Positions 19,068 to 37,160 are shown, counted from the first letter of the stretch. The stretch: 64,000 bases of DNA from Candidatus Micrarchaeota archaeon (GCA_016212505.1 JACRGB010000028.1:9537-73536), one strand, 5' to 3'. Notes: a model not told the origin generated them from the sequence alone. Translations and numbers: made by a program.

Positions 19068-19069
19068 TT

Positions 19070-21294: not shown

Positions 21295-21725
21295 TGGTCC
21301 TTCTACGGCAAGTTAGAGAAGAAGATTTCGAAAAGATATTGAATTGGCGGAACGAGCCGCAAGTTAGGAAAAACAGCTTCAATCAAAAAGAAATAAGCCG
21401 TAATGAGCATCTAGATTACTGGCACAAGAGAATAAAGTCTGCGGAGTATGATTTTATCATTAGCCATAATGGAATTGATGTTGGTCTTTTAAGATTGGAT
21501 AAAAGGGAAGAGAAAGCATATGAAGTGAACATAATGATAGATCCCAAACACCAGGGTTTAGGAATTGGAAGTGATGCAATAAAGGAAATCAAAAAAATTG
21601 CAAAGGCCAGGGGCATAAAAAAATTAATTGGACGAGTGAAACATGGGAATGTTGGATCCAATAAGATTTTTGAGAAAAACGAGTTCCAATTGAGATATGT
21701 CGTCTATGAATTGGATATAGAGTGA
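21276..21725 (+). CDS. pseH: GNAT N-acetyltransferase, PseH-like
   Basis: 149-aa ORF. LRQVREEDFEKILNWRNEPQVR and QGLGIG GNAT motifs match the PseH pattern. Overlaps the end of pseI. Confidence 0.7.
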   Translation: MESGEMMVLLRQVREEDFEKILNWRNEPQVRKNSFNQKEISRNEHLDYWHKRIKSAEYDFIISHNGIDVGLLRLDKREEKAYEVNIMIDPKHQGLGIGSDAIKEIKKIAKARGIKKLIGRVKHGNVGSNKIFEKNEFQLRYVVYELDIE

Positions 21726-21729
21726 TAGT

Positions 21730-22710
21730 ATGAAAATACTGGTTGTTGGTTGCGGATCGATTGGTCGTAGGCATATAACCAATCTCATCTCTCTAGGTTA
21801 TGAGACGATAGGAGTCGAAACAAATCCGGAATACCGAAAATGGGTGGAGGAGAATCTTAAGATCAAAACATATCCACAGTTTTCGGATGCAATAACTTTA
21901 GAAAAGGCTTCTGCGTGTTGGGTCTGCACGCCTCCGAATTCACACATCCAAATAGCAAAAGAGGCAATCGGGGCAGGATTACACACGTTCATAGAAAAAC
22001 CGGTCTCTTCATCATTAGAAGGAATAAATGGCCTTATTGCAATGGCCAAGAAGAAAAAATTAGTTCTAGCCGTTGGATACAATCTGCGCTTTAGTAAGGG
22101 TGTGGTTAAAGTAAAGGAACTCGTAGAGTCAGGAATCATTGGGAGGGTACTTCATGCCAGGGTCAGTGTCGGGCAGTATCTTCCTGATTGGAGGCCTTGG
22201 CAAGACTATAGAAAATCATATACTGCAAGTAAGAGCCTTGGCGGGGGAATAATACTTGATGCCTCGCATGAGATTGATTATATACGATGGATCATGGGCG
22301 AGGCAAAAGGAGTCACATGCATAGCCCGAAAAGTAAGTTCGCTGGAGGTAGAAACGGAAGATAGTGCAGATATCATATGTGAATTCAAAAGTGGTGCGGT
22401 AGCAAATATTCATCTTGATTTTATCCGTAGGGATCCGAAACGCGATTGCGAAATTGTTGGTGAAAAGGGCACGATAGAACTGGTTTTTGGCCAAAAGGTG
22501 TCACTTTACACTGCAGAATCTAAGCAAAAACAGGAATTTGATGTAACTGATGACCACAACAATACTTACATACGCGAAACCGAGGATTTTTTTCGCGCGG
22601 TAAAAGAAAAGAAAGGGCCTTTGGTTAGCGCTGAGGAAGGCATGGAATCTCTCAACCTGGCTATTGCAGCAAAACAAGCGTCTGAAAAAGGAAAAACCAT
22701 TTCTCTCTAG
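21730..22710 (+). CDS. Gfo/Idh/MocA-family NAD(P)-dependent oxidoreductase
   Basis: 326-aa ORF with MKILVVGCGSIGRRH Rossmann, EKP motif and a C-terminal alpha/beta domain. Confidence 0.85.
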   Translation: MKILVVGCGSIGRRHITNLISLGYETIGVETNPEYRKWVEENLKIKTYPQFSDAITLEKASACWVCTPPNSHIQIAKEAIGAGLHTFIEKPVSSSLEGINGLIAMAKKKKLVLAVGYNLRFSKGVVKVKELVESGIIGRVLHARVSVGQYLPDWRPWQDYRKSYTASKSLGGGIILDASHEIDYIRWIMGEAKGVTCIARKVSSLEVETEDSADIICEFKSGAVANIHLDFIRRDPKRDCEIVGEKGTIELVFGQKVSLYTAESKQKQEFDVTDDHNNTYIRETEDFFRAVKEKKGPLVSAEEGMESLNLAIAAKQASEKGKTISL

Positions 22711-23502
22711 TTATTTTACTTTCTTATCTTCCTTAAGAGATTTGGTATACCCTTCGTTGATAATTGCACCTTTATTGATTTCCGAAAGTTTTGGATGGGC
22801 AATTAACAGGGCTTTTACATCCTGATAAGTGAAATTATGATCCCGGTTGTTTTGAAACATAAATGCATATATTTGCCTAATTAGTTCAAGATCATTTGGC
22901 CGATCGACGCTCATTTGCTTATCAGCAAACCAGGGATCAGTATCAGTGTAGAAGGATTTCTCTTGTGCGTCAGCCATTTTTCTTATATACGGGGTCACAT
23001 GTTCTCTTTCAGATGCCAAAGTGGCGTTTTTCCAAGCAATTTCAAGTGCATGAAAACTAAACACTTCTACATCAAAACCGTCCATCCAGGGTTGTTTTCC
23101 GTTACTTACATAGTCTAGTTCGGATTTTTTGAAAAGACGTACCATTTCATCTATAAGTTGTGGATCTACGAGCGGGCAGTCTCCAGTTATACGCACCACG
23201 ATATTAGCGTCGTTGGCTTTGGCTGTTTGGTAGTACCTATCTAAAACGTCATCAAGGAGCCCCCTAAAGCAGTTGAAGCCATTTTTTAGTGCAAACTGAT
23301 AAAGCGGGTCATCACTTGACTCAGTAGTAGTTGCAAGGACAACCTCGTTAGATTCAATTGACTTAAGTGCACGCTGTAGCACATGCCAAATTAGAGGTTT
23401 GCCGCAGATATCCATCAGCGATTTGCCTGGAAGACGGGTTGAACTCATCCTTGCCTGGATTATGATTATCGTTTTTGATTTTTTATCCTGCAGAATTATC
23501 AC
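22711..23502 (-). CDS. SpsF-type cytidylyltransferase (candidate CMP-nonulosonate synthetase)
   Basis: 263-aa ORF with IIIQARMSSTRLPGKSL and ITGDCPLVDP, the CTP_transf_3/SpsF family motifs. Confidence 0.75.
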   Translation of the reverse strand: MIILQDKKSKTIIIIQARMSSTRLPGKSLMDICGKPLIWHVLQRALKSIESNEVVLATTTESSDDPLYQFALKNGFNCFRGLLDDVLDRYYQTAKANDANIVVRITGDCPLVDPQLIDEMVRLFKKSELDYVSNGKQPWMDGFDVEVFSFHALEIAWKNATLASEREHVTPYIRKMADAQEKSFYTDTDPWFADKQMSVDRPNDLELIRQIYAFMFQNNRDHNFTYQDVKALLIAHPKLSEINKGAIINEGYTKSLKEDKKVK

Positions 23503-24831
23503 CTAGTCAGTTAGTCTCTGGAAGCCGCTATGTTTAACCGGGCCGTTCAAAAGTTTTTCCACCCGGCCTTCTTTTGCTGCACTTGCAATTAACTTGAAAA
23601 CTTCATTGCAAGATTCTCCATATCTATGTAGGTCATCTTTACTATGTGCATAAGAAACATAGAAACCTCCAGTGGCAAGGAAACCTCGTTTAAGCATTTC
23701 CTGAGTAAAAAGAGTCATAACTGCAAGATTTTTTTCACCATATTCAAAATCAAAATGCATTATAGGTGGAAAACCATAGTCCACGTGCATAGCAACATTA
23801 TTTTCTTTGCCAAGTTTTTCCCAAAGTGCGCCCATTGCATTGCCAGTTTCAACAATATGTTTTGGGACATTTTTTTCCTCCATTTTTTTTATTGTTGCAA
23901 GGGCCGCAGTTGGACCAACACCTTCTGTCCAGTAAGTACTGCTTATGAAGCTTTCTTGGGCAGCATCCATAACTTCATCTTTTCCAACCACTGCCCCCAT
24001 GGGATAGCCATTGCTCATTGCCTTAGCAAAAACAACCAGATCAGGCTTAACCCCAAATTTTGGGTATTCACCACCGACCGAACTCCTAAAACCCGATGAA
24101 ATTTCATCAAAGATAAGTACTGCATTTGTTTCATCTGCAATTTTTCTGACCTTGTTAAGAAAATTATTTTCGGGTTTTTTGCTCCTGATGGCCTCCACAA
24201 CGATAACACCAAGATCATTGTGTTTTTCTACGAGACTTTCCAGCTCGGATATTTGATTATAGTGGAAGGGCAAGGCAGTTCCACTCAGTTCGCGTGGAAC
24301 TCCACCAGGATCTAAACCTTTTAGTAGGTGATCATTAAGCCCGTTTGGATCTTTTAGATTGGTTGAAAGATACCAATCATGCCAGCCATGGTAACCGCAA
24401 AAAGCAAGTTTTTCTCTTTTAGCATAAGCTCGCGCAATTCTCACTGCAATAGCCATGCTTTCGCCACCGGTCCTTGCATAGCGAACTTTACCTGCCCAGG
24501 GGTTGAGTGAAATAAGCTTTTCGGCAAGTTCAACTTCCTCAGGGCAGTTAAATGTGGCCATATTGGCATTGTCTATCCTAGTTTTTACAGCACGATCAAC
24601 ATCAGGATCTGCATAGCCAAGGATGCAACTCCCTATCCCCATTATGCACATATCAGTATACTCAATCCCGTCCAAATCCCAGATTTTTGTCCCTTTTGCC
24701 TTGGAATAATAAGATGGCCATTGATCTGGAAGGAACATTTCAGATCTTTTTGATAGGAGTTGAGAACCTCCAGGTATGAGTTTTTTTGCTTTTTTCCATA
24801 AGTCTTGTCCTTTGGCCATTGATATCACCAC
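23503..24831 (-). CDS. class-III PLP aminotransferase (glutamate-1-semialdehyde aminomutase-like)
   Basis: 442-aa ORF with LIFDEISSGFR and the FAKAMSNGYP lysine motif. Abuts the cytidylyltransferase gene. Confidence 0.85.
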   Translation of the reverse strand: MVISMAKGQDLWKKAKKLIPGGSQLLSKRSEMFLPDQWPSYYSKAKGTKIWDLDGIEYTDMCIMGIGSCILGYADPDVDRAVKTRIDNANMATFNCPEEVELAEKLISLNPWAGKVRYARTGGESMAIAVRIARAYAKREKLAFCGYHGWHDWYLSTNLKDPNGLNDHLLKGLDPGGVPRELSGTALPFHYNQISELESLVEKHNDLGVIVVEAIRSKKPENNFLNKVRKIADETNAVLIFDEISSGFRSSVGGEYPKFGVKPDLVVFAKAMSNGYPMGAVVGKDEVMDAAQESFISSTYWTEGVGPTAALATIKKMEEKNVPKHIVETGNAMGALWEKLGKENNVAMHVDYGFPPIMHFDFEYGEKNLAVMTLFTQEMLKRGFLATGGFYVSYAHSKDDLHRYGESCNEVFKLIASAAKEGRVEKLLNGPVKHSGFQRLTD

Positions 24832-25220: not shown

Positions 25221-25772
25221 ATGCTAAATAAAACAGATAAAGAACTCAGAATAAATGGCAAATTCTTATATCTGAGGCCCATTAATACAGAGGATATCAA
25301 AGGCCACTACCCTAGTTGGATGAATGATCCTCAAGTCACTAAATTTCTCGAAAGTAGATTCTTAGATAATAGTATTGAAAACATCAGGACATTTGTAGAA
25401 AATATTTCGAAGAACCCAGACATCCTGTTTCTTGCCATCGTAGTGAAGGAAGGTAATCAGCACATAGGCAATATCAAGCTTGGGCCAGTAAATAGACATC
25501 ATAGAAGCGCAGAATTAGGAATCCTTATAGGAGAGAAAAATCAGTGGGGAAAAGGATATGCAACCGAAGCAATTGGCATTTTAGTAAGGTATGCATTCGA
25601 AGAATTAAAGCTGCACAAGATAACTGCTGGATGCTATGCAAATAACTTAGGTTCTATGGCCGCATTCAAAAAAGTTGGTTTCAAAGAGGAGGGAAGACGC
25701 CAAAGCCAATTCAGATTTAATGGGGAATATGTCGATTCGGTACTCTTGGGCATTATCAATCCGATCAGTTAG
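25221..25772 (+). CDS. GNAT-family N-acetyltransferase (RimJ/RimL-like)
   Basis: 183-aa ORF with WGKGYATEA (Q/RxxGxG/A) and a conserved beta-bulge region. Confidence 0.85.
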   Translation: MLNKTDKELRINGKFLYLRPINTEDIKGHYPSWMNDPQVTKFLESRFLDNSIENIRTFVENISKNPDILFLAIVVKEGNQHIGNIKLGPVNRHHRSAELGILIGEKNQWGKGYATEAIGILVRYAFEELKLHKITAGCYANNLGSMAAFKKVGFKEEGRRQSQFRFNGEYVDSVLLGIINPIS

Positions 25773-27069
25773 ATGAAGAAACCTTGAGAAGACCGGATTT
25801 GTACAGATCATCAGCGGCATCTTTTATCGAAGGAAAATCAATGTTTGACCTTACTGATATGTCCAGAAGGCTATTAGACCCATCAGAAAAGTTGAGTACC
25901 CACAACATGGCAGTTTGACTTATTTTGCTTCTCTTGCTCCCCCCTATTAGATTGTACAGACCTCGCTTCCCTAGTTGAGGCTCGCATTTTGGATTACGAT
26001 TAACATATTTGAGATTATTTTCAAGAATATAAACAGTTTGCAGGTACTTTGATAATGAGTCCATTAGTGCGTCAGGTTTTACAAAGTTAAGATCATCTGC
26101 TGAGGTGTGATATTCGGGAAAATTACCATACGGAGTTCTCATAAGGGATCCAATTGGCAAATTAAATCCAGGGGAACAAAATTGCCGTTCATCGCTTCCA
26201 GATGGGAAAAAATCTAAAATTTTGTATGGTTTGCCGGAATCGATAAGTACTTTTACTACTGCTTGATCTATGATTGCGTTTGCTTGGCGAGTTTTTTTAT
26301 AAGTAGAGCATCCAGGGTCCCCAACACACGTTGCAACAAGACCATGTTTGATTTTGCCCACATTCTTTTCATTAATGCTAAGCCAGGCAATCGCACCTAT
26401 TGTTTCTGGTATGAAGATAAAACGATAAGAGTATTTCAAATTTTTCTTTTTTAGTAGGCTCTTTGCCAGAAATACGAGTAGCACCACACCGCTTAGATTA
26501 TCATTGCAAAGCGAGGGGTGGCAGACGTAACAGCTAAAGAGTACTTCTTCTGCAGTTTTGCCTTTTATATAGAGTTCACCGTAAGTCATTGAACCGGAAC
26601 TAAGTTTAGAATCAATAAAAACTTCATACGTATCTTCTTTCAATTCCAGATATTTCCTGTGTGTTATACAAAAGCCCCAATCCTCCTTGTAGTATGAGGT
26701 TAAATAAGGTATAACGTCTGGTTGATCAGGTAATGAATGAAGGTGCGTTCTAAGTTCTGCCAGGGACACCTTCTTTTTTACTGGAATACTATAATTGAGA
26801 AGGTGGAGATTAGAATTTTTGAAATCAACTATTTTTTCTCCTTTTGAATTTTTTATATATGCGGAAGAAACATCCCACTCTTTAGGAATGGTCCAATCAA
26901 AAACTTTTGTACCGGAAGAAACTTCGCTAATTTCAATGGGAATATGACTTTTGATTATTTTTAATGTCTGGCGAACTCCATTCCCAGTAATACTCCTACA
27001 AATAGGATAAAGCTCGTGCATAAAATCGTACATCTCTTTTCCTAGATCTTTTTCAGGCATACACATCAC
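25765..27069 (-). CDS. DUF4910 / aminopeptidase-like (M28-fold) protein
   Basis: 434-aa ORF. The N-terminal MYDFMHELYPICRSITGNGVRQTL is the typical DUF4910 opening. Usually paired with AAC(3)-like genes in glycan loci. Confidence 0.6.
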   Translation of the reverse strand: MMCMPEKDLGKEMYDFMHELYPICRSITGNGVRQTLKIIKSHIPIEISEVSSGTKVFDWTIPKEWDVSSAYIKNSKGEKIVDFKNSNLHLLNYSIPVKKKVSLAELRTHLHSLPDQPDVIPYLTSYYKEDWGFCITHRKYLELKEDTYEVFIDSKLSSGSMTYGELYIKGKTAEEVLFSCYVCHPSLCNDNLSGVVLLVFLAKSLLKKKNLKYSYRFIFIPETIGAIAWLSINEKNVGKIKHGLVATCVGDPGCSTYKKTRQANAIIDQAVVKVLIDSGKPYKILDFFPSGSDERQFCSPGFNLPIGSLMRTPYGNFPEYHTSADDLNFVKPDALMDSLSKYLQTVYILENNLKYVNRNPKCEPQLGKRGLYNLIGGSKRSKISQTAMLWVLNFSDGSNSLLDISVRSNIDFPSIKDAADDLYKSGLLKVSSSN

Positions 27070-27848
27070 TCAATTTTTGTTCCTTTTATCAAAAGAGCAG
27101 GATCCTTTGCTAATTCTGCTTTTACAAGATCAAAACAATCCTGAGCAGATATTGAAAGTATTGTTCCTTTTCCAAGTTTGGCAATTCTTGCAATAGAACG
27201 GTCTTTAGTTATCCTATCGAACTTTGTGAAATTTGGACCATTATTGGGTTTATCTAAGTCGTAGACAAAATGGTAGAACTGGCAGTTTATTTTATTTCCG
27301 TTAATTAGCATCGTACCTGGAAAGGCCTTATCATAGCGATATGGGACTTTCAGGGTTTTTTCTACATAATGTATAAATGTTGAGCCGGAATCGAAATTAA
27401 AATTACATATTTTTCCTTGGACTTTGAGGAATTTATCCCAAAATGACCCTGGCCCGAACGAATGCTCTGGTGGATCTTCGGCAAAATAAGAGGCCTTTTT
27501 TCCGATTGCAGCTATAGAAAAATTGGCATCATTTGATCTTTGTGCTTCTGGATCCATACGAACCATTTCTGAGAAAAAACCACAGACACTTTTTGTGTTT
27601 TTAGGATCAAAAAATTCGCCCTTACAAAAAGAATAGGAAAAGGTTGGCACAATCAGCGTACCGTCTTTTCCGATGACGGAAAATATCGCTTTTTTAAAAA
27701 TATTATAATGATCCAGGGGCGAGGCCACTTCCTCCAGTTTACCAAAAAACCCGATATTGCTATGAATAAATATATCATTGCCAGCTGAAATACCAACTGC
27801 CCTAAGTGCATCTACAATCTCGCCATAAGAATAGTCAGGTTCAGCCAT
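27066..27848 (-). CDS. AAC(3)-family N-acetyl/acyl-transferase
   Basis: 260-aa ORF with ALRAVGISAGNDIFIHSNIGFFG, GTLIVPTFSY, RSNDANFS and FIHYVE, matching the AAC(3) fold motifs. Confidence 0.7.
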   Translation of the reverse strand: MAEPDYSYGEIVDALRAVGISAGNDIFIHSNIGFFGKLEEVASPLDHYNIFKKAIFSVIGKDGTLIVPTFSYSFCKGEFFDPKNTKSVCGFFSEMVRMDPEAQRSNDANFSIAAIGKKASYFAEDPPEHSFGPGSFWDKFLKVQGKICNFNFDSGSTFIHYVEKTLKVPYRYDKAFPGTMLINGNKINCQFYHFVYDLDKPNNGPNFTKFDRITKDRSIARIAKLGKGTILSISAQDCFDLVKAELAKDPALLIKGTKIE

Positions 27849-28089
27849 TTGTACGCCTTTTTATGATTAATGCAAGACCCTCTATTGAAGAAAAACTACG
27901 GTCTTGGAAATCATCATTCAGAAAATTAATATTAAATATTGTCTCTATATCACTTACTAGGCTTATAAACTTAAAAGAATCGATCCAACCCTTATCAAAA
28001 TAATTATCCGAAGTTTTTGTTTCTATTTGATTTCTTGTCAGGGAGGTATTCTTCAAAAACCATTCAATAAGCCAATTACGGATATCCAT
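27841..28089 (-). CDS. acyl carrier protein
   Basis: Start taken at the internal ATG (28089), giving 82 aa. GWIDSFKFISLVSDIE contains the D-S phosphopantetheine attachment motif in helix II context. Confidence 0.65.
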   Translation of the reverse strand: MDIRNWLIEWFLKNTSLTRNQIETKTSDNYFDKGWIDSFKFISLVSDIETIFNINFLNDDFQDRSFSSIEGLALIIKRRTNG

Positions 28090-28094
28090 TTTTT

Positions 28095-28748
28095 CTACCT
28101 GTAAAGACAAATGCGTGCGGGTGAACCGTCTGCGCCTTTTATTCTCAGGGGAAGGGCCACAATATTCCATCCGTAGTAGTCAACAACTTTCTCTAAATTT
28201 GCAACATATTCTACTAAAATAACATCATTGGCAAGGAAAATCTTGTGTATTGGTGAATCATCTTCACCACCTGAGAGCTTGCTTCGGCTATCATCAGGAG
28301 AAGGAGTATCAAAACCGACAAGCTCGATTTTTTTTGAAACAAGATATTCTGCTGCCTCCTTGCTAAAATACGGCCAGTTTTGGTAGAACTTCTTCGAATA
28401 CCAGTGTTTGCCCCAACCAAACTTGAATAGGAGTTTCTTTTCGAATTTAATATTGACCAGATGATCCTTAGTTACAACCCCATTTTCGCCTAGATCAGAT
28501 AAATCTACAATAACAACTGGTCCGACAAGTTTAACTGGGTCGATCTGGTCTATTGATTTACCATTTTTTATAAAATGCAGAGGTGCATCGATTTGAGTCC
28601 CAGTGTGGGTCCCAAAAGTAACCTCTCTTGTTTCACGGCCTTCAAATGCTATACGCCCAATCTGTTTAATTGAAACGTGTGGATGCCAGGGGGCTCCAAA
28701 AGTGGGCATACCTTCTTCGATAGTATATGTAAGATCAATAACCTCCAT
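28095..28748 (-). CDS. cyclase-family (kynurenine-formamidase-like) hydrolase
   Basis: Start at the internal ATG 28748 (MEVIDLTYT). GTHTGTQIDAPLHF and a metal-binding His/Asp pattern, as in the putative cyclase family. Confidence 0.7.
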   Translation of the reverse strand: MEVIDLTYTIEEGMPTFGAPWHPHVSIKQIGRIAFEGRETREVTFGTHTGTQIDAPLHFIKNGKSIDQIDPVKLVGPVVIVDLSDLGENGVVTKDHLVNIKFEKKLLFKFGWGKHWYSKKFYQNWPYFSKEAAEYLVSKKIELVGFDTPSPDDSRSKLSGGEDDSPIHKIFLANDVILVEYVANLEKVVDYYGWNIVALPLRIKGADGSPARICLYR

Positions 28749-28753
28749 AAGGT

Positions 28754-29440
28754 TCACCTTTTTTTGCACACGACCAAATGCCAGTGATAATTTAGGCCAA
28801 AACAATTATCATGAATTGAGCCAAAAACAAAATCACCAAAATAAGGACTAAATGCTTTTTCAATGTCCTTTTCGTCTTCAAAGATCTTCAGTATCTCTCC
28901 ATTTCTAACTTTGAAAAAATCATTTTTAATAAGTTTATACCCGGATTTAATATCTTCACTGTCAGAATATATGAAACTTGTTTTTTTGGGTATTGAAAGT
29001 ATCAGATATCCGCCTTTTTTAAGAACTCGTTGCAATTCACGGACGTGCTTCTCGAATTCAAATGAGTTTCCCATGTAGTAGCAAACATTCCAGGAGATAG
29101 CGTAGTCAAAGAAAGCATCATCAAATGGCAAATGGTCATTTTTACCTACACGGACATCTGCAGCTATGCCTTTTGAATTGAGATTAGCAGTGCTTTTAGT
29201 TACTATTTCATGGGTTAGCTCAGTACCATAAAGCTCAAAACCAAGTTGGTTGAATAGGACAAGATTCCTACCATCACCGCACCCAACATCACATAATTTT
29301 TTTGACTTGTACGATATTTTGTCAAGATCAAGATGAGGGTAGGTTCCTTTGAAAATTCTGACTAAATACTCTGAGGGGAAAGCCATCTGTTGCCTTTGGT
29401 CATACTCTCGATTCCATTCTGCATTGGAATTATAGCTCAT
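28754..29440 (-). CDS. class I SAM-dependent methyltransferase
   Basis: 228-aa ORF with DVGCGDGRN motif I and an acidic motif II (YGTEL). Confidence 0.8.
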   Translation of the reverse strand: MSYNSNAEWNREYDQRQQMAFPSEYLVRIFKGTYPHLDLDKISYKSKKLCDVGCGDGRNLVLFNQLGFELYGTELTHEIVTKSTANLNSKGIAADVRVGKNDHLPFDDAFFDYAISWNVCYYMGNSFEFEKHVRELQRVLKKGGYLILSIPKKTSFIYSDSEDIKSGYKLIKNDFFKVRNGEILKIFEDEKDIEKAFSPYFGDFVFGSIHDNCFGLNYHWHLVVCKKR

Positions 29441-30204
29441 TTAGATACGCCTCCTAAGGAAAGGACCTCAACGATCTCTCCGCCTGGCCCGATAGCGAAA
29501 AATATGTCTAATACTTTCCCGTTGACAGAAACCGATTCAATTTCCGTAACTTTTACCTTACTGGCCGAGAGTTTTTGGTGTTCGTTCGATGCCGAATTAG
29601 ATATCAACGCAATACAATTAAAACCATTATCATCAAGAGAAAAATGCCCGGAGCCTGACTTTGGTTCCGATTTCCTTAGATATATTACAAATTTTTGTTT
29701 TTTTAATATGGAAAGAAATTCCATGGCTACTAGCCCGGTATCATCAGGTATTTGATTAAAACCAAAAAACTTCCAGAAGGTCATACTCAGAGAAACATCT
29801 GAAGTGTTTATTATGGCCTTATTAAGGGCAAGGCCAGTTGCATCTTCCGTGACACATATTGGTATGTCCAAGGTTCCTGGAGCCAAAGTCGTATTTTTGA
29901 ATTTGCCAGCAGAGGACTCATTAATACCTTCATAAGTACGAAGGCCGTCAAATATTGGAAGCACATAGCCAGGTAATTTCCCGGCGTAGCCGTAATCGAT
30001 AAACTCTATACTTATACTATTGGGATGATCCATCAGAACTAAATCATGAGTAGGAGTAAAGTGGCTAACAAGTTTTCTCTTGATTGCTGGATTTGGAACA
30101 TTATTAGAGGAAAAGCGTTTCGAATATCCTAGGGTTTCGAATAGTTTTACTGCTTCATCATTTTTGGCAGAAGAAAAAGCGATATGATCAATTTGAAGGA
30201 ACAT
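29437..30204 (-). CDS. VOC/glyoxalase-like protein (tentative)
   Basis: 255-aa ORF. The N-terminal IDHIAFSS....EAVKLFETLGY resembles the first beta-alpha-beta3 module of VOC proteins. Weak call. Confidence 0.35.
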   Translation of the reverse strand: MFLQIDHIAFSSAKNDEAVKLFETLGYSKRFSSNNVPNPAIKRKLVSHFTPTHDLVLMDHPNSISIEFIDYGYAGKLPGYVLPIFDGLRTYEGINESSAGKFKNTTLAPGTLDIPICVTEDATGLALNKAIINTSDVSLSMTFWKFFGFNQIPDDTGLVAMEFLSILKKQKFVIYLRKSEPKSGSGHFSLDDNGFNCIALISNSASNEHQKLSASKVKVTEIESVSVNGKVLDIFFAIGPGGEIVEVLSLGGVSK

Positions 30205-31699
30205 TCAATCTCTCCGCACAAAGTTTTCTAATTTTTGGTTTGTCAGTTTTCCCATTTGTATTTTTAGGTATTTCTTTCAGCATAAGAAATTGGTTTATTT
30301 GGTAGTCGCTGCCAAGTTTTTGAACCAGTTCACTATTAAGAACCTTAAGAAGGCGTTCATTGTGCTCACCTTTTGGTGAAAATACACAAACAACTTTTTC
30401 CCCTAGGATCGGGTCGGGAAGACCTACGATTACGACTTCATCAAAAATATCAAGCTTATAGATAAAGTCTTCAATCCGTTTAGGGCTTATATTGAACCCT
30501 CCTCGGATTATGAGGTCTTTTTTCCTGCCAGTAATCTTAACGAAACCGTCATTTTCAAACACCCCTAGGTCACCAGAGAGGTATTTTTCATCATGAAAAA
30601 ATTTTTCTGTACTCATATTAGTATATCCTAAGAACATCCATGGGACTGTGATAAGGATCTCTTGATCGGTAAGAAAGTCCAATTTTACGCCTTGGAGAAG
30701 AGGCCCTACGGCATCGGGTCGATCATGGCCGGGATAATTACTACTAACAAACAAGGTTTCTGAAAGGCCATAGCTTTCATATAAGGGTATCTTATATTTA
30801 GCCTCAAATGAGATTTTTAGGTGGCTCGGTAATGGCGCAGTGCCTACACATGCAATGATGTTTCGATTTTTTGCATAATCAATTCCTTCAGTACTTCGGT
30901 CTAGCTTAAGTAAAAGTGCTATAATGGTTGGACTGAGCCAGAACGTATTTGCAGAATATTTAATTGGGATTTTCCAAAAATGCATAACGGCAGCCACATT
31001 GAATCGTTCACCCAGCACCACCGAACTTCCTGAAATAAATGGGAGGAAAAAAAGATTGAGTATTCCTGCCATATAGCTCATTGAGAAATTATGGTAGAAA
31101 ATATTATTTTTTCCGAAATTAAATCTGCTCTTAAAAGCAAGCGAGGTGTGGAAAAGATTATTGAATGAATGCATAACTCCTTTCGGAACACCTGTTGAAC
31201 CTGAAGTAAATGTAATCAAAAATAGCTTGTCATAATCTAGTCCATCAAAAATAGAAAGCTCGCTTAAATTCACAGCGCTCTTTTTCTGGAGAGATTTCCG
31301 CACAGGATCAAAGTTAATTACTTGGTCTGAAGCAAACAAAATTGGCAAATCGGAAAGTTCGGAGATTATTTTCTCATACTTAACTTGGCCCAAGGTGTCG
31401 GTTATTTCTTCTTTCCCTTTTGTTGGGTCTATAGGTGCAGCCACTGATCCTAAAATTAGGGACGCAAGATAAAATGCGCTAAGTTCCACAGAGTTATGAA
31501 CCAAAGTGCACACAATATCATCCTTAGTTATACCGTTTTTTTTCAACTGATCCCTAAAACTTATTGCAAGTCCAAAAAATTCCTCATAGGTAAGTGAAGA
31601 ATCGTTAAGCCCATCAAACATGAATTTTTCTTTCCAGTTTTCTTTGAAAAGATTTTTTATGTATTCGGCAGTATCAGATCTTGCGCTCATCTTGCTCAC
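30188..31699 (-). CDS. adenylate-forming acyl-AMP/ACP (CoA) ligase
   Basis: 503-aa ORF with the FTSGSTGVPKGV AMP-binding motif, YGLSET, GDLG and a terminal GK. Confidence 0.85.
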   Translation of the reverse strand: MSKMSARSDTAEYIKNLFKENWKEKFMFDGLNDSSLTYEEFFGLAISFRDQLKKNGITKDDIVCTLVHNSVELSAFYLASLILGSVAAPIDPTKGKEEITDTLGQVKYEKIISELSDLPILFASDQVINFDPVRKSLQKKSAVNLSELSIFDGLDYDKLFLITFTSGSTGVPKGVMHSFNNLFHTSLAFKSRFNFGKNNIFYHNFSMSYMAGILNLFFLPFISGSSVVLGERFNVAAVMHFWKIPIKYSANTFWLSPTIIALLLKLDRSTEGIDYAKNRNIIACVGTAPLPSHLKISFEAKYKIPLYESYGLSETLFVSSNYPGHDRPDAVGPLLQGVKLDFLTDQEILITVPWMFLGYTNMSTEKFFHDEKYLSGDLGVFENDGFVKITGRKKDLIIRGGFNISPKRIEDFIYKLDIFDEVVIVGLPDPILGEKVVCVFSPKGEHNERLLKVLNSELVQKLGSDYQINQFLMLKEIPKNTNGKTDKPKIRKLCAERLNVPSN

Positions 31700-32738
31700 C
31701 GCCTACATAGCGCTCAAAGCCATATTTTGTGAGATAAATTTTCTCTTCTTTTTTTATTTGCTGTGCAACGTCTTCAAGTAATTTCTGATCCAGGTTGACC
31801 TTATCTATCTTAGTCCACTCTAAAATTAGCAAAATCGGATCTATTCTGTATTTGGCCGAACATTTCTGTATAGCAGGCATATAGCTGGAATGAAAATCGG
31901 AGTAGCCTGATATGATATCAAGAGGCATCTTTCCGTTGCTGCTTAGCAAAGGTTGTACAAAATTCTGACCGAGTTCAAAGAGCCGCCTGAGATCTACATT
32001 GATTTCATGCCCCCTCTTTTTCAGAGCCGCCACAAGTACCTCACTACATGCATTTCCAGAGCTTCTACCCAGTCCTTGCATGGAAGAATCAACAAATAAC
32101 GCTCCAAGCTCAAATGCTTCGACACTATTGGATATGGACATACCTAAATTATCATGGCCATGAAAACCTATATCGATATTTGATGCTTTTCTTATAGATT
32201 CGAAATAACGTCGCACATCACTAGGAAACATTCCTCCAGCAGAATCAACAATATAAACCATATCTGCCCCGTATTTCTCCGAAAGCAGCACATTTTGAGC
32301 GAATTGTTCTGGTGAAGAAACATATGATTTCATATAGTTGGCGGCTACAAACATCCCGTAATCTTTTGCCCTTTTAATGAACTCTTCGGATTTTTGTACT
32401 TCAGTAACGTTCGTTCCAATTCGTATAAATCCCATATTATGTTTTGCTGCCAGATCAATATCTTCAAGTCTTGCTATGCCGGGTATGCAGAACATCCCAT
32501 ATTTCGCTTTCCTTAAGGCGCCTTCTGCAGCGACCATATGTTCCTCATCAGTTGCTGCTGCCTGTCCATAACCTTTATTAGTAGCATTTAACCCGACACC
32601 ATGGCCAATTTCAATATATTCAAACCCTATTTCTTCCAGTTCCTTGCAAACAAATGCAGTATCAGCAGAGGTGAATGAAAAGTTTATAACATAACTACCA
32701 TCCCTAAGGGTTATCTCCATTATATTGTGCTTTTTCAT
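31674..32738 (-). CDS. HMGL-like aldolase (4-hydroxy-2-oxovalerate aldolase / pyruvate carboxyltransferase family)
   Basis: 354-aa ORF with ITLRDGSY, IEIGHG and DSAGGMFP; GFHGHDNLGM supplies the TIM-barrel metal ligands. Confidence 0.8.
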   Translation of the reverse strand: MKKHNIMEITLRDGSYVINFSFTSADTAFVCKELEEIGFEYIEIGHGVGLNATNKGYGQAAATDEEHMVAAEGALRKAKYGMFCIPGIARLEDIDLAAKHNMGFIRIGTNVTEVQKSEEFIKRAKDYGMFVAANYMKSYVSSPEQFAQNVLLSEKYGADMVYIVDSAGGMFPSDVRRYFESIRKASNIDIGFHGHDNLGMSISNSVEAFELGALFVDSSMQGLGRSSGNACSEVLVAALKKRGHEINVDLRRLFELGQNFVQPLLSSNGKMPLDIISGYSDFHSSYMPAIQKCSAKYRIDPILLILEWTKIDKVNLDQKLLEDVAQQIKKEEKIYLTKYGFERYVGGEQDERKI

Positions 32739-32761
32739 ATGATCAACTTGCTAGAACCGTT

Positions 32762-33160
32762 CTAAGGGCGTTCTATGACTGCAAATGCGATCGCATTAGA
32801 ATCAGAATGCGATAAGCTAATATGCACCTGCATCTTTTTGAACTGCTCTTTTTTTATTTTTTTTATATAAATTGAAGGAAATCCACCAAAGTTTATCAGC
32901 ACTTCTATATCTTTAAGGGTTATTCGAGGATTTGACTTAAGGGCCGTATAAAGGGCTTTGAAAACCGCCTCCTTGGCAGCATAACGTACAGCCAGATGAT
33001 GTTCAGGAGTTATCTTTTTTAGGCAGTATTTGAGTTCATTGCGGGTAAAGATTTTTTTTAAAAAAACCTTATCACCAAGTTTTTTTGCAAATCTTTCAAC
33101 AAGTTCTATATCCACACCAATGGCAAGGATCGTGGCGCTCATCATAAAATCTGAAACCAT
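32762..33160 (-). CDS. acpS: holo-ACP synthase (4'-phosphopantetheinyl transferase)
   Basis: 132-aa ORF with GVDIELVERF, AAKEAVFKAL and ISLSHSDSNAIAFAVIE, the AcpS motifs. Confidence 0.8.
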   Translation of the reverse strand: MVSDFMMSATILAIGVDIELVERFAKKLGDKVFLKKIFTRNELKYCLKKITPEHHLAVRYAAKEAVFKALYTALKSNPRITLKDIEVLINFGGFPSIYIKKIKKEQFKKMQVHISLSHSDSNAIAFAVIERP

Positions 33161-33187
33161 TATTAATATAAACGGAACAGAAAAATA

Positions 33188-34399
33188 ATGCCAAAAATAC
33201 TTTTTATTCCAAGTTCACTTAACCAATTCAAAAAGTTCCTTCAGATAATGAACAAACTCCCTGATGGTTTCACCCACACCACAATAAATATCGATAAATT
33301 TAGGCAAACTTTCACAATGGAGTCAATAAAAAGCTCCAAGGTTGACTTCATAGCCATTGAAAGCATAACTAACCAAAGCGTTAGAAATATGATAAAAGAA
33401 CAGAATCCGAGCCTCATCATATTAGGCAATGACACAGACATAACACCTTACATATTTGCTGTTGAATCAAAAAAAATTGGGATACCAGTACTCCTCATAC
33501 AGGATGGCACTCTTTCATTTAAGACAGTAAAAAAGCCGCTTGATATTGGATATGCCATGGATCTTTTCAAAACATATACACCAAAATTTCTTTTGGGTCG
33601 GATTCTAGCTAAACTGAAAAGAAGTAAAGGCCCAAAATTGTCGGATTATGGCTGCTATTCGGATTACATTGCAGTTTGGGGAGAATATGCAAGAAATCAG
33701 CTCATAGAGAGGGGCAGCCCACCAGAAAAGATCATAGTTACCGGATCACCTTCCATTGATTTTGTGTTAAAACAGCAGATAGATAAAAATAGGATATTTC
33801 AGTCGCTTAAGGCAGATCCTGAGAAAAAGACAATATTTTTTGCAGCATCAGATATGATAGGTGCAAGGTTGTGGACTAGAGATGAATTTGAGAACACCAT
33901 CAAACAAGTATGCAATGCAGTAAATAATATGGATGAAGTCCAGTTAATTATAAAAATACATCCCTTTCACCAGGGAAGAGAGCCTAAATTCATGGAAAAA
34001 TTTGTGGACGGAAAAAAGATTTTCGATGGGGGCATCGTGGATACTACAGACCTGCTTCAATTATGCGATATCCTGATAACTGATGTTTCAACATCAGCAC
34101 TAGAGGCCATGGCAATTGGTAAAAATGTTGCAATAATTAACTTAACGTCTAGGTCAGTTAGTGAACCATATCCAGATATTTATATAACAGATGGGGTTGC
34201 GTTTCTCATTAATAATGAGGAGCAGGTGGAAACCTGCCTAAATCGAATCCTTTATGACAATGAGCTTAGGGATAGCTTGGCAAAAAAAAGGAATGAGTTT
34301 GTGAAGGAACAACTTTTTAGACTTGATGGAAAATCTTCGGAAAGAGTAGTTGATCTTATAATAAAAATAATTGAAAACAGGTTTAGAATTGCTAATTAA
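33188..34399 (+). CDS. GT-B-fold transferase (TagF/KpsS/2-epimerase-like), candidate nonulosonate or glycerophosphate transferase
   Basis: 403-aa ORF. IKIHPFH followed by CDILITDVSTSALEAMAIGKNV resembles the C-terminal nucleotide-sugar binding half of GT-B enzymes. The family is not resolved. Confidence 0.4.
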   Translation: MPKILFIPSSLNQFKKFLQIMNKLPDGFTHTTINIDKFRQTFTMESIKSSKVDFIAIESITNQSVRNMIKEQNPSLIILGNDTDITPYIFAVESKKIGIPVLLIQDGTLSFKTVKKPLDIGYAMDLFKTYTPKFLLGRILAKLKRSKGPKLSDYGCYSDYIAVWGEYARNQLIERGSPPEKIIVTGSPSIDFVLKQQIDKNRIFQSLKADPEKKTIFFAASDMIGARLWTRDEFENTIKQVCNAVNNMDEVQLIIKIHPFHQGREPKFMEKFVDGKKIFDGGIVDTTDLLQLCDILITDVSTSALEAMAIGKNVAIINLTSRSVSEPYPDIYITDGVAFLINNEEQVETCLNRILYDNELRDSLAKKRNEFVKEQLFRLDGKSSERVVDLIIKIIENRFRIAN

Positions 34400-35107: not shown

Positions 35108-36073
35108 TTAATTGCGTAAATTTTTTGCAAAATTTTTCATTGTCATAAAATTCATGCGAAATGATTTTTTTAACTCGGATAAAGCACCTTCTATTTTGCT
35201 AAAATTATTGGCTGATGAATAGGTAAACTCATTTCCCAAATCCTCACTACACTCAAAAAACTCCCAGGGGTGGCTAAGAAAAACAATGAACGGTTTTTGG
35301 CCATTTAGGATTTGTAATTTTGCAACTCTCGTTGCAGCAGCAACAATATCGGTTTTGAGATCTCTCAATACAACGTTGTAAGTGTTGAAAACATTATAGT
35401 GCGCAATAGCGAATTTGCTAAAAAACGGCATAGGATCGGTAGTAACTGGTATCTGAATAAGATTTTGCCATTTAGTCACTAATGAGGCAGTTCCAGTATA
35501 AGAAGGAGGGGAAGAATCAGTACTAAAACCATACTCTTGGAGTAACGAGAGGGTTTGGTTATCTGCTACCATATTTGGCGCGCGGAAAGATTTTGGAGGT
35601 TCAATTTTTGCCCGCTCAAAAGCGTCAAGAGACTTATTTAAAAGTTCGCGGCGCTGAGCAGAGTTTGGAACTGGGCCTTGGGTAAACCAGGCACGGCCCC
35701 AATTTTCATGAGCATAGCCATGAAGCCCAACTTCGAGATCAATTCCATCACTTTCTAAGCGCTTTAGCGAAGGTGCCAAGGATGCTATGAGGTCCCCTTG
35801 AACAAATAACGTAGGGCTGATTTTGTTTTTTGCAAAAAAATCCCTTGCTTTATCTAAATAAGGTGCAGAGTAAAGTGTTTGACCGGATCCTGCTGAACCA
35901 TAATCGTATTCGACATCAACAGTGAATAGGAAGTCAATTTCCTGATGCTCATCTATTTCAACTGAATCAAGTTTTTTTGAAAGGGCGTTCCAGCGCAGCA
36001 CATTCATAGGGGAATAAATTGGGGATCTAGGATCAAATAGGCCGCCAAAAACGATATTTTTATCTCTAAGCAT
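35108..36073 (-). CDS. polysaccharide deacetylase (CE4-like)
   Basis: 321-aa ORF with FTVDVEYDYG and HGYAHE metal-binding-like motifs. Moderate call. Confidence 0.6.
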   Translation of the reverse strand: MLRDKNIVFGGLFDPRSPIYSPMNVLRWNALSKKLDSVEIDEHQEIDFLFTVDVEYDYGSAGSGQTLYSAPYLDKARDFFAKNKISPTLFVQGDLIASLAPSLKRLESDGIDLEVGLHGYAHENWGRAWFTQGPVPNSAQRRELLNKSLDAFERAKIEPPKSFRAPNMVADNQTLSLLQEYGFSTDSSPPSYTGTASLVTKWQNLIQIPVTTDPMPFFSKFAIAHYNVFNTYNVVLRDLKTDIVAAATRVAKLQILNGQKPFIVFLSHPWEFFECSEDLGNEFTYSSANNFSKIEGALSELKKSFRMNFMTMKNFAKNLRN

Positions 36074-36125: not shown

Positions 36126-37142
36126 ATGGATTGGAAATCAAAAAAGGTCTTAGTTACTGGTGCTGGCGGATTTATAGGAAGCCATCTTTGTGAAGAATTA
36201 GTATCATTAGGTGCAGATGTCCGGGCAATGATCCATTATAATTCAAGCAATTACTGGGGAAACCTCGAACTAGTGGACAAGAAAACAGTAGATAAAATGG
36301 AAGTAATTGCAGGAGATGTGCGGGATCCATTCTTTATGAGAAAAGCAGTTAAGGAATGCGACTATGTATTCCACTTGGCTGCACTCATTGCCATTCCTTA
36401 TTCTTATATTGCGCCAAAAGATTTTGTTGACACCAATGTTAATGGAACCTTAAATGTCATGCAGGCCTCTTTGGAAGAAGGGGTAAAGAAGATAGTACAT
36501 ACCTCAACTAGCGAAGTCTATGGGACTGCACAATATGTACCAATTGATGAATCTCATCCATTGCAGGGCCAATCACCTTATTCAGCTAGCAAGATCGGCG
36601 CTGATAAGATTGCTGAAAGTTATTATTTGTCATTTGGGCTCCCGATTGCAACTCTGAGACCATTTAACACATTTGGACCAAGGCAATCGGCAAGGGCAGT
36701 AATTCCTACAATCATATCACAGCTGTTTTCAGAAAGAGGAGGAAAAGCCGGAGGAGCAGAAGGAAAACTAAATCTTGGTTCATTAATTCCGGTAAGGGAC
36801 TTTACCTATGTTAAAGATACTGCCAAAGCATTTGTTGCAGTGGCAGAGTCAAGCAAAACAGTCGGTATAGTGGTAAATTCCGGTACTGGAGAGGGCCATA
36901 CCATAGGTGATATTGCGAATAGCTTGATAAGCATCACCAAAAGCAAGGCAGAAATCGTTAAAGACAATAAGAGGATCCGACCGGAAAAAAGCGAGGTTAT
37001 GAAGCTCATATGTTCAAATAAAAAAATCAAGGAACTTACTGGATGGAAGCCGCAGGTCTCTTTTGAGCAAGGGCTAGGCGAAACAGTTGACTATATAAAA
37101 AACAATATCGGAAGGTATAAAACGGACATATATAACCTCTGA
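36126..37142 (+). CDS. NAD-dependent nucleotide-sugar dehydratase/epimerase (SDR)
   Basis: 338-aa ORF with VLVTGAGGFIGSHL, STSEVYG and YSASKIGAD. Confidence 0.85.
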   Translation: MDWKSKKVLVTGAGGFIGSHLCEELVSLGADVRAMIHYNSSNYWGNLELVDKKTVDKMEVIAGDVRDPFFMRKAVKECDYVFHLAALIAIPYSYIAPKDFVDTNVNGTLNVMQASLEEGVKKIVHTSTSEVYGTAQYVPIDESHPLQGQSPYSASKIGADKIAESYYLSFGLPIATLRPFNTFGPRQSARAVIPTIISQLFSERGGKAGGAEGKLNLGSLIPVRDFTYVKDTAKAFVAVAESSKTVGIVVNSGTGEGHTIGDIANSLISITKSKAEIVKDNKRIRPEKSEVMKLICSNKKIKELTGWKPQVSFEQGLGETVDYIKNNIGRYKTDIYNL

Positions 37143-37160
37143 AGTAGGGGGGCAGCAAGC

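Follow-up and report, generated by a model that had tools for sequence, protein, structure and literature searches.

A nine-gene operon beside the pseudaminic acid (Pse) genes of a Candidatus Micrarchaeota archaeon (GCA_016212505.1) is most likely a cassette that would build a small unusual acid, load it onto its own carrier protein, and attach it to the amino group of a sugar. Based on sequence comparison, the operon is probably a self-contained, mobile tailoring cassette that would replace or add an N-acyl group on Pse or its nucleotide-sugar precursor, drawing on an acyl carrier protein (ACP)-bound donor instead of acetyl-CoA. The same uncharacterised, portable cassette turns up sporadically across bacteria and archaea, in most cases beside genes for this sialic-acid-like surface sugar.

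Organization of the operon

Within the window, the whole 64,000-nucleotide stretch of DNA that was analysed (JACRGB010000028.1:9537-73536), nine intact minus-strand genes occupy positions 25765-33160, overlapping by up to 52 nt or separated by at most 23 nt, beside pseB/C/I/H/F. Gene identities were established with Pfam and NCBIfam profile searches, except for two genes (VOC and ACP) that had no Pfam match and were assigned by other means.

18084-24831: pseudaminic-acid core genes: pseB, pseC, pseI, pseH-type GNAT, GFO/MocA oxidoreductase, CMP-transferase (CTP_transf_3), class-III aminotransferase
25221-25772, plus strand: GNAT (Acetyltransf_3) gene (PF13302, 98.8 bits)
25765-27069, minus strand: DUF4910/DUF2172/HTH_47 protein (PF16254, 378 bits)
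27066-27848, minus strand: AAC(3)-fold (Antibiotic_NAT) N-acyltransferase (PF02522, 105 bits)
27841-28089 (frame within ORF 27841-28170), minus strand: 82-aa acyl carrier protein, predicted (homologue profile, fold model)
28095-28805, minus strand: cyclase-family (kynurenine-formamidase-like) metal hydrolase (PF04199, 114.5 bits)
28754-29440, minus strand: class I SAM-dependent methyltransferase (PF08241, Methyltransf_11, 61 bits)
29437-30204, minus strand: two-domain VOC (glyoxalase-I-like) protein, 255 aa, predicted (fold model, Foldseek, PF00903 in relatives)
30188-31699, minus strand: adenylate-forming (ANL) ligase (PF00501, AMP-binding, and PF13193, AMP-binding_C)
31674-32738, minus strand: stand-alone DmpG/BphI-type class II pyruvate aldolase (HMGL-like; PF00682, NF006049)
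32762-33160, minus strand: AcpS-type 4'-phosphopantetheinyl transferase (PF01648, TIGR00556, TIGR00516)
36126-38772, 3 kb from the cassette: NDP-sugar genes (NDP-hexose dehydratase, nucleotidyltransferase, epimerase)

A preliminary description of this DNA had recognized nine tightly packed minus-strand ORFs, all of which are present and intact where it placed them, and profile searches and fold models agree with each of its nine gene calls, among them the tentative VOC-like assignment and the DS serine of the carrier. Its placement of pse genes and a class-III aminotransferase next to the operon is likewise borne out, with pseB, pseC, pseI, and a pseH-type GNAT in the flank. The plus-strand GNAT gene converges on the DUF4910 gene with an 8-nt overlap and, with a homologue adjoining a DUF4910 paralogue in locus L011, may be a second acyltransferase belonging to the module. 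The host is archaeal, as had been proposed: the genome encodes L15e and RpoN, and a housekeeping gene on the cassette's contig has matches of 71-77% identity in 24 of 25 same-genus genomes.

Recurrence and mobility of the cassette

Eight of the nine genes form a conserved cassette (45-67% identity) with the same order, aldolase, ligase, VOC, methyltransferase, cyclase, ACP, transferase, and DUF4910, that was found in 10 other genomes of bacteria and archaea (two Micrarchaeota, Methanobacterium ferruginis, Aerophobus, Omnitrophota, Bacteroidales, Ignavibacteriales, Lentisphaera, Victivallis, and one uncultured bacterium). Comparison across the ten cassette loci supports the connection drawn earlier from this single neighbourhood: eight have pseB/C/I/H or a CMP-transferase beside the cassette, and the remaining two are short pieces of contig, 2.6 and 4.9 kb long. 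The ACP gene is directly upstream of the transferase gene in six loci, is separated from it by a radical-SAM gene in L007, and falls off the contig in L005 and L009.

The cassette marker is present in only three of 401 genomes of the phylum and DUF4910 was absent from all 24 same-genus genomes, indicating that the cassette is accessory and horizontally mobile. Additionally, a clade uniting all of the archaeal sequences was rejected (p-AU 0.027), and horizontal transfer of the cassette is supported by these results. Of the bacterial-derived transfer suggested in the preliminary description, the transfer is supported, while the donor may or may not have been bacterial.

The conserved neighbourhood bears on the identity of the acceptor. 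The Pse core genes (18084-24831) would supply it; the canonical pseH-type GNAT is also present and may leave either nitrogen as the site of re-acylation. A different amino sugar from this glycan island, either the product of the 36126-38772 genes or an amine generated by the GFO/MocA oxidoreductase and class-III aminotransferase, is an unlikely acceptor in place of Pse. It would fit the proximity of the NDP-hexose dehydratase, nucleotidyltransferase, and epimerase, the trio of oxidoreductase, CMP-transferase, and class-III aminotransferase that accompanies the cassette in L004, L005, and L011, and the existing pseH-type GNAT for N7. However, pse genes are the neighbours that recur at all loci other than the fragments, the genes at 36126-38772 are non-conserved neighbours, and the only genetic result available for the family, from Cj1295, concerns an N-acyl group of Pse (PMC3068675).

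A dedicated carrier protein and its transferase

The AcpS is a single-domain protein of the family's length (~120-130 aa) that exceeds the curated cut-offs (PF01648, 57.8 bits against 25; TIGR00516, 67.1 against 59.8; TIGR00556, 86.1, above cut-off), and an alternative start six codons downstream would yield 126 aa, the length of the database copy P0279. The 82-aa protein scored 14.6 bits against the Pfam PP-binding profile, under the 20.8 cut-off. A profile of nine homologues matches ACP and DltC chains of solved structure at E 2.7e-6, the DS being in register, and the predicted model (pLDDT 95) has a four-helix carrier fold in which helix II begins at Ser38, with TM scores of 0.70-0.84 to DltC and ACPs (best structural match DltC, TM 0.8). 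Asp37-Ser38 is invariant in nine sequences, and Ser38, the predicted attachment serine, corresponds to codon 27976-27978 in the motif GWIDSF. Judged by homologue profile, predicted fold, and the invariant Asp37-Ser38, the 82-aa protein is a carrier protein, and the earlier reading of it as an ACP with a DS attachment site holds on the same three lines of evidence.

The cassette AcpS is the only phosphopantetheinyl transferase (PPTase) found in its own genome (profile search, single match) and the cassette ACP is the only ACP-like match, consistent with the dedicated carrier system that had been proposed. In all three cassette-bearing Micrarchaeota the AcpS sits inside the cassette as the sole PPTase, while bacterial hosts with an AcpS-less cassette have a PPTase elsewhere in the genome (five of five tested). 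Among the sampled Micrarchaeota, ~7% encode an AcpS that belongs to a different operon. Due to its family membership, and as the genome's only PPTase alongside its only ACP, AcpS would prime Ser38 of the ACP as the first step of the proposed pathway.

Construction and loading of the acid

The aldolase (PF00682, 127 bits; NF006049, 288 bits against a cut-off of 229) aligns along its full length with 1nvm and 8ih7 (E 1e-47 to 1e-49), and the Arg, Asp, and HxH ligands of metal and pyruvate are conserved. A catabolic role as the DmpG/BphI 4-hydroxy-2-oxovalerate aldolase was rejected: the score for the equivalog TIGR03217 (257 bits) is under its cut-off of 286, a profile search of the genome did not find the partner dehydrogenase DmpF (PF09290), and in the family alignment DmpG His21 is replaced by Tyr and Tyr291 by His in all of the cassette homologues. 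By these sequence features the protein is a relative of DmpG/BphI with the same metal and pyruvate site and not the catabolic enzyme. With the ligands conserved and DmpF missing, it would join pyruvate and an aldehyde into a 4-hydroxy-2-oxo acid.

The ligase gene overlaps the aldolase gene here and in other loci, a position conserved in the aldolase-holding loci, and the closest solved chain to its product is malonyl-CoA synthetase 4fuq (E 1.5e-32). The ligase is presumed to load the acid onto holo-ACP, adenylating the 4-hydroxy-2-oxo acid or a derivative. The VOC, methyltransferase, and cyclase-family proteins would modify the unit, either ahead of loading or while it is on the carrier; the most likely part is methylation, at O or C, of a 2-oxo or 2-hydroxy acid, and the VOC and cyclase roles are guesses. 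Fitting a unit of this type, a D-2-hydroxyacid dehydrogenase replaces the aldolase in the variant locus L007.

The 255-aa protein is under the Pfam cut-off itself, while 31 of 60 relatives match PF00903; its model (pLDDT 93) has two βαβββ modules, with GLOD4 and maize glyoxalase I as top Foldseek matches (TM ~0.7, E 1e-11). The residues H7, K42, E67, and E246 are invariant, with H7, E67, and E246 as the predicted His/Glu metal ligands of the superfamily, and the modelled protein can be placed in the VOC (glyoxalase/dioxygenase) superfamily. Homologues of the methyltransferase occur in seven loci (52-57% identity), with a split copy in L010 and none in L008. The cyclase-family hydrolase, with solved relatives 8hmo, 1r61, and 4cz1, has the motif HTGTQIDAPLH, in which Gln aligns in place of the second His of most relatives. 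Pfam and NCBIfam profiles detected no HAD or FkbH domain among the nine genes.

It may be that the unit is an amino acid, given an aminotransferase (class I/II) inside the Methanobacterium cassette and a class-III one near the cassette here. The aldolase and a transaminase would make a 2-amino-4-hydroxy acid, possibly N-methylated or lactam-cyclised, and the sugar would be aminoacylated in the manner of N-methylglutamyl and alanyl nonulosonates. The class-III aminotransferase is also close in L005 and L011, the ACP is as similar to D-alanyl carrier proteins as to ACPs, and amide and lactam bonds are the targets of cyclase-family enzymes. Still, this reading has a low probability, as the ligase resembles fatty-acyl/malonyl-CoA synthetases more than amino-acid adenylation domains and no aminotransferase lies within 10 kb of several of the bacterial cassettes.

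Transfer to the sugar

The transferase scores 105 bits against the PF02522 cut-off of 25, and the Antibiotic_NAT catalytic motif TxΦHΦAE (Thr/His/Glu; PMC8956665) appears as TFIHYVE or a close variant in all eight cassette sequences. It is not an aminoglycoside-resistance gene, with a best NCBIfam AAC(3) score of 62.3 bits against a cut-off of 270. The DUF4910 protein (378, 137, and 94 bits for its DUF4910, DUF2172, and HTH_47 architecture) has relatives of 65-71% identity across phyla, matches 3k9t (CA_C2195) over residues 7-430 (E 1.4e-173), and is by sequence an orthologue of CA_C2195, belonging with the Cj1295 family as assigned in PMC3068675. In P0034, P0086, and P0110 the transferase forms the N-terminal part of a fusion with DUF4910, the ACP is fused to the transferase in L011, and P0066 is a DUF4910-GNAT fusion; the first two arrangements tie together the carrier, the transferase, and DUF4910.

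The transferase is predicted to take acyl-ACP and not acetyl-CoA, and the gene fusions support a final step in which it would hand the ACP-bound acyl group to a free amine in the Pse pathway. DUF4910 would either free that amine by removing an acetyl group or act as a non-catalytic partner; the deacetylase role is doubtful because Das et al. (2014, PMC4000134) report that catalytic residues expected of its peptidase-like domain are missing. The literature searched yielded no description of an Antibiotic_NAT member that uses acyl-ACP. All characterised Antibiotic_NAT enzymes use acetyl-CoA (PMC8956665), and in other Micrarchaeota AcpS and ACP occur in a non-glycan operon, both in line with two unrelated halves, in which the transferase and DUF4910 would use acetyl-CoA and a separate small metabolite or lipid would be the product of AcpS, ACP, ligase, and aldolase. 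Such a division is nevertheless very improbable given the ACP-transferase fusion, the gene order kept across two domains, the overlaps throughout the operon, and the lack of a condensing enzyme or thioesterase in the cassette (Pfam and NCBIfam profiles).

The product of the joined pathway would be a surface-displayed Pse whose acyl group is small (C4-C5), of hydroxy/oxo (or amino) type, and probably methylated. The route outlined in the preliminary description, an acid built, carried on a dedicated ACP, methylated, and moved to a sugar amine, is backed by the pse-linked conservation, the fusions, and the sole AcpS and ACP.

Comparison with known systems

The closest studied system is that of Campylobacter jejuni Cj1295 and Cj1296/7; the preliminary description recognized neither this relative nor the recurrence of the cassette. 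In strain NCTC 11168 these flagellin-glycosylation genes, encoding a DUF2172/DUF4910 'aminopeptidase-like' protein and an N-acetyltransferase, adjoin pseB/pseC and are needed for Pse5(2,3-di-O-methylglyceroyl)7Ac, which the Cj1295 mutant loses (Hitchen et al. 2010, PMC3068675). The cassette likewise has DUF4910, N-acyltransferase, and ACP genes clustered with pse genes, the Campylobacter family assignment being taken from PMC3068675. Both systems place DUF4910 next to an N-acyltransferase in a Pse locus, with a methylated small hydroxy acid as the N-acyl group, a known product in C. jejuni and a proposed one here. The C. jejuni locus presumably also has ACP and methyltransferase genes. Compared by description, the acid-building half differs, consisting here of a DmpG-type aldolase, ANL ligase, VOC protein, and cyclase-family hydrolase where C. 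jejuni presumably has an FkbH/HAD-type loader, and the cassette also brings its own AcpS and resides in an archaeon.

CA_C2195 (PDB 3k9t) belongs to the Clostridium acetobutylicum cluster CA_C2186-CA_C2199, and neighbours of its family include NeuB, a cytidylyltransferase, a 'glyoxylase', aminosugar N-acetyltransferases, and ACP (Das et al. 2014, PMC4000134), with Nitrosopumilus maritimus Nmar_0140 (HMGL-like) and Nmar_0135 listed as orthologue neighbours in the supplement. That cluster shares a DUF4910 orthologue with ACP, N-acetyltransferase, NeuB, and 'glyoxylase' nearby, whereas the study, which proposed only 'modified carbohydrate biosynthesis' for CA_C2195 (PMC4000134), includes neither the aldolase-ligase-cyclase module nor AcpS or a mechanism.

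The cassette aldolase resembles DmpG/BphI (1nvm, 8ih7) in its full-length match and conserved Arg/Asp and HxH ligands and differs in having no DmpF/BphJ, in its swapped channel and catalytic His/Tyr, and in its biosynthetic instead of catabolic context. The Dlt system (DltA ligase, DltC carrier) similarly decorates a surface polymer by means of a small dedicated carrier that an adenylating ligase loads; however, the cassette ligase is of the acyl-CoA-synthetase type, and a soluble AAC(3)-fold enzyme is proposed to act on a sugar amine in place of the MBOAT DltB. Set beside these systems, the aldolase-fed, acid-building half is undescribed so far, and the cassette has a partly studied relative in Campylobacter.

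Composition of the cassette and its surroundings

Nine minus-strand open reading frames, all intact, were found where the preliminary description had placed them (window 25765–33160), and neighbouring genes overlap by as much as 52 nt or are at most 23 nt apart. Searches against Pfam and NCBIfam directly named seven of the nine proteins.

Genes of the cassette, from AcpS to DUF4910, and of its flanks

Minus strand: AcpS (PF01648; TIGR00516 above the cut-off)
Minus strand: HMGL-like aldolase, DmpG subfamily (NF006049, 288 bits against a cut-off of 229)
Minus strand: adenylate-forming (ANL) ligase (Pfam/NCBIfam)
Minus strand: VOC protein, 255 aa
Minus strand: class I SAM methyltransferase (Pfam/NCBIfam)
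Minus strand: cyclase-family protein (PF04199)
27841–28089, minus strand: ACP, 82 aa, starting 5 nt past the cyclase stop codon
Minus strand: Antibiotic_NAT (AAC(3)-fold) protein (Pfam/NCBIfam)
Minus strand: DUF2172/DUF4910/HTH_47 protein (Pfam/NCBIfam)
Flanks: pseB, pseC, pseI, a pseH-type GNAT, a GFO/MocA oxidoreductase, a CMP-transferase and a class-III aminotransferase
25221–25772, plus strand: second GNAT in the flank, converging on the DUF4910 gene

The VOC protein has no Pfam match of its own, and among its 562 representative relatives PF00903 was matched by 31 of 60 sampled. Modelling (pLDDT 93) gives it a VOC fold with two domains, nearest to GLOD4 and plant glyoxalase I, and residues H7, K42, E67 and E246 are invariant. 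The ACP falls short of the Pfam PP-binding cut-off; a profile built from nine homologues aligns its Asp-Ser with that of ACP and DltC chains of solved structure (E 2.7e-6), and the structural model of the ACP (pLDDT 95) fits DltC and ACPs with TM 0.70–0.84, helix II beginning at Ser38.

The AcpS gene and the gene at 33188–34399, which encodes a GT-B-like protein with Epimerase_2 and Glyphos_transf similarity just past the cassette, have divergent starts separated by 27 bp (window 33161–33187). Most of this spacer is a near-palindrome, TATTAATATAAA, which may be a TATA element used by both genes to make leaderless transcripts. Scans for promoters and terminators of the bacterial type did no better than chance, and such models are not applicable to an archaeal host. 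Also just past the cassette is a NodB-type polysaccharide deacetylase (35108–36073), which would offer an alternative route to a free sugar amine and is not kept in the other loci.

The host genome (1.48 Mb, 90% complete) encodes L15e and RpoN, both of which, among 14 control genomes, match only in the four archaea. SAHH, a housekeeping gene on the same contig (48993–50240), has 71–77% identity to copies in 24 of 25 same-genus genomes, and the contig is therefore archaeal, as had been assumed. Neither ribosomal protein S8e (PF01201) nor the archaeal-type SAM synthetase (MAT; PF01941) was found in this 90%-complete genome.

Recurrence and horizontal transfer

Scanning species-representative genomes with the VOC protein (a 10-sequence alignment) returned 10 loci, against which all window proteins were compared by tblastn. 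The block of aldolase, ligase, VOC protein, methyltransferase, cyclase, ACP, transferase and DUF4910 recurs with 45–67% identity for most genes and 33–39% for the VOC protein. The loci belong to two Micrarchaeota of the same family, Methanobacterium ferruginis, Candidatus Aerophobus, an Omnitrophota MAG (without the aldolase), a Bacteroidales (without the methyltransferase), an Ignavibacteriales, Lentisphaera and Victivallis (both contig fragments) and an uncultured bacterium. The pse genes adjoin the cassette in 8 of the 10 loci, the remaining two being fragments too short to tell. A close VOC relative is also present in a Thermoproteota MAG, and the DUF4910 orthologue of Nitrosopumilus maritimus has the HMGL-like Nmar_0140 and the cytidylyltransferase Nmar_0135 as neighbours (Das et al. 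2014 supplement, PMC4000134). Three genes, for a GFO/MocA oxidoreductase, a CTP_transf_3 cytidylyltransferase and a class-III aminotransferase (window 21730–24831), also occur with the cassette in three loci of other genomes (L004, L005 and L011) and could introduce another amino group on the sugar or help to supply the acyl unit.

None of 24 genomes from the same genus or 16 from the same order yielded a DUF4910 match, and the VOC marker is present in 3 of 401 genomes of the phylum, all of one family. Nonulosonate synthase homologues occur in 28 of 81 genomes of the family, so the sugar pathway is fairly common and the cassette a rare addition to it. Quick trees of the concatenated cassette cluster the three from Micrarchaeota weakly (SH-aLRT 89 or 50, depending on the model) and that of Methanobacterium with Aerophobus and Omnitrophota, and a clade of all archaea is rejected (p-AU 0.027). 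GC over the cassette falls to 36–39%, compared with 40–42% nearby. Together, the patchy distribution of DUF4910 and the VOC marker, the tree topology and the GC dip support horizontal movement of the cassette across domains, in one direction or the other.

A dedicated carrier system

The cassette AcpS is the sole PF01648 match in the genome and the cassette ACP the sole PP-binding-like match, a weak one; the cassette AcpS is likewise the only PPTase of the two other cassette-bearing Micrarchaeota. Each of five bacterial carriers examined that lack an in-cassette AcpS has a PPTase on another contig. There are two exceptions to this pattern: Aerophobus has an in-cassette AcpS plus another PPTase, and M. 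ferruginis has no in-cassette AcpS, its sole PPTase match being a frameshifted Sfp-type gene (L021, the M. ferruginis region, 1444–2078; chromosome ~2.2548 Mb). The frameshift lies near the W/KES motif in a complete genome; if it is not a sequencing error, the cassette there cannot be primed. Judging from gene content, the carrier system is dedicated to the cassette.

The generalization that archaea lack AcpS held for 93% of the sampled phylum, 29 of 401 genomes having an AcpS match. In the other AcpS-bearing genomes sampled from the same family, the gene lies in a different operon, Pta-AckA-AcpS, and an AcpS tree places the Pta-AckA-linked copies of these other Micrarchaeota in a clade of their own, away from those of the cassette. 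This operon, with a single AcpS, was seen in five loci of the family (L024 5813–8494, L032 5817–10420, and L029, L033 and L035). Beside the AcpS of L032 are a divergent ACP (PF00550), a DUF35/ChsH2-like protein and a thiolase/KS-like protein, a layout that L029, L033 and L035 resemble as judged by ORF size alone, and the operon may represent a separate DPANN carrier-protein pathway.

Linkage of carrier, transferase and DUF4910

In six loci the transferase gene directly follows that of the ACP; in the Omnitrophota locus (L007) the two are separated by a B12-radical-SAM gene, and two loci (L005 and L009) end before the ACP gene. In the Ignavibacteriales MAG, ACP and AAC(3)-fold transferase form a single 343-aa frame (L011, 12036–13067). 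Fusions also involve DUF4910, with three database proteins of ~700 aa joining an AAC(3)-fold domain to the DUF4910 N-terminus and one being a DUF4910-GNAT fusion. The same Ignavibacteriales locus holds a second, distant DUF4910 paralogue beside a GNAT that resembles the one at window 25221–25772.

The transferase keeps the catalytic Thr/His/Glu motif of the Antibiotic_NAT family (PMC8956665), as TFIHYVE. A role in aminoglycoside resistance was rejected on scores far under every resistance equivalog cut-off. Given the adjacency and fusion of ACP and transferase, the DUF4910 fusions, the kept motif and the non-resistance scores, acyl-ACP-dependent N-acyl transfer is the best reading of the transferase's predicted role, and DUF4910 would be its obligate partner.

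Proposed chemistry of the acyl unit

Over its full length the aldolase can be aligned with DmpG, and it keeps the Arg, Asp and HxH ligands; in all cassette members, DmpG His21 is replaced by Tyr and Tyr291 by His. A role in catabolic meta-cleavage was rejected because no DmpF partner was found in the genome and because the gene lies in a sugar locus. The nearest relative of the ligase is malonyl-CoA synthetase, and those of the cyclase-family protein are metal hydrolases and kynurenine formamidases, with Gln here in place of the second motif His.

Two variant loci bear on the unit being built. The aldolase of the Omnitrophota locus is replaced by a D-2-hydroxyacid dehydrogenase, a HAD hydrolase and a B12-radical-SAM enzyme, and the Methanobacterium cassette contains a class I/II aminotransferase; these point to a putative acyl unit that is a 2-oxo, 2-hydroxy or 2-amino acid. 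For the VOC protein, an HPPD-like reaction that depends on oxygen seems unlikely, since strictly anaerobic organisms such as Methanobacterium carry the cassette. In the Ignavibacteriales locus an unassigned ORF adjoins HisH- and HisF-like genes for an amidotransferase; such genes accompany pseA in C. jejuni, and the analogy would suggest that one nitrogen bears an acetamidino group. The present locus carries the pseH-type GNAT.

Comparison with known systems

The cassette is a real feature, and its reading as a route that builds an acyl unit on a carrier, methylates it and transfers it to a sugar amine is supported, from sequence, at the level of pathway logic. Non-acetyl groups on nonulosonic acids affect phage recognition, immunity and surface properties; their addition to pseudaminic and legionaminic acids is largely unexplained, and the cassette offers a complete, compact candidate pathway. 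Its nine genes cover the donor, the carrier, the priming enzyme and the transferase and lend themselves to reconstitution in vitro; the occurrence in a DPANN archaeon without another carrier-protein system implies a self-sufficient, domain-crossing module. Cultured carriers, M. ferruginis and, according to the supplement of Das et al., N. maritimus, make the product measurable.

We propose tentatively, and at rather less than even odds, that the product would be an N-acyl group new to nonulosonic acids, namely a methylated acid for which a stand-alone DmpG-type aldolase makes the C5 precursor, 4-hydroxy-2-oxo (or 2-amino) in type, that the enzyme delivering it would be the first with the AAC(3) fold to depend on acyl-ACP, and that the module would move between bacteria and archaea, bringing its own AcpS where the recipient is without carrier-protein biochemistry.

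Enzymes that modify nonulosonic acids are scarcely known, as noted in a Tannerella study (PMC5378307). In C. jejuni NCTC 11168, Cj1295, of the same family as the cassette DUF4910 protein, is required for Pse5(2,3-di-O-methylglyceroyl)7Ac and adjoins an N-acetyltransferase, Cj1296/7; its authors suggested that it removes the N5 acetyl group (PMC3068675). The closest solved relative of the cassette protein is CA_C2195 (3k9t; E 1.4e-173), a structure determined by Das et al., who found in it no peptidase catalytic residues and noted its linkage to NeuB, N-acetyltransferase and ACP genes (PMC4000134). No description of an aldolase-fed cassette or of its archaeal copies was found in the literature, and relative to this known, biochemically unsolved kind of system the cassette is new in being fed by an aldolase, in carrying its own AcpS and in its DPANN host.
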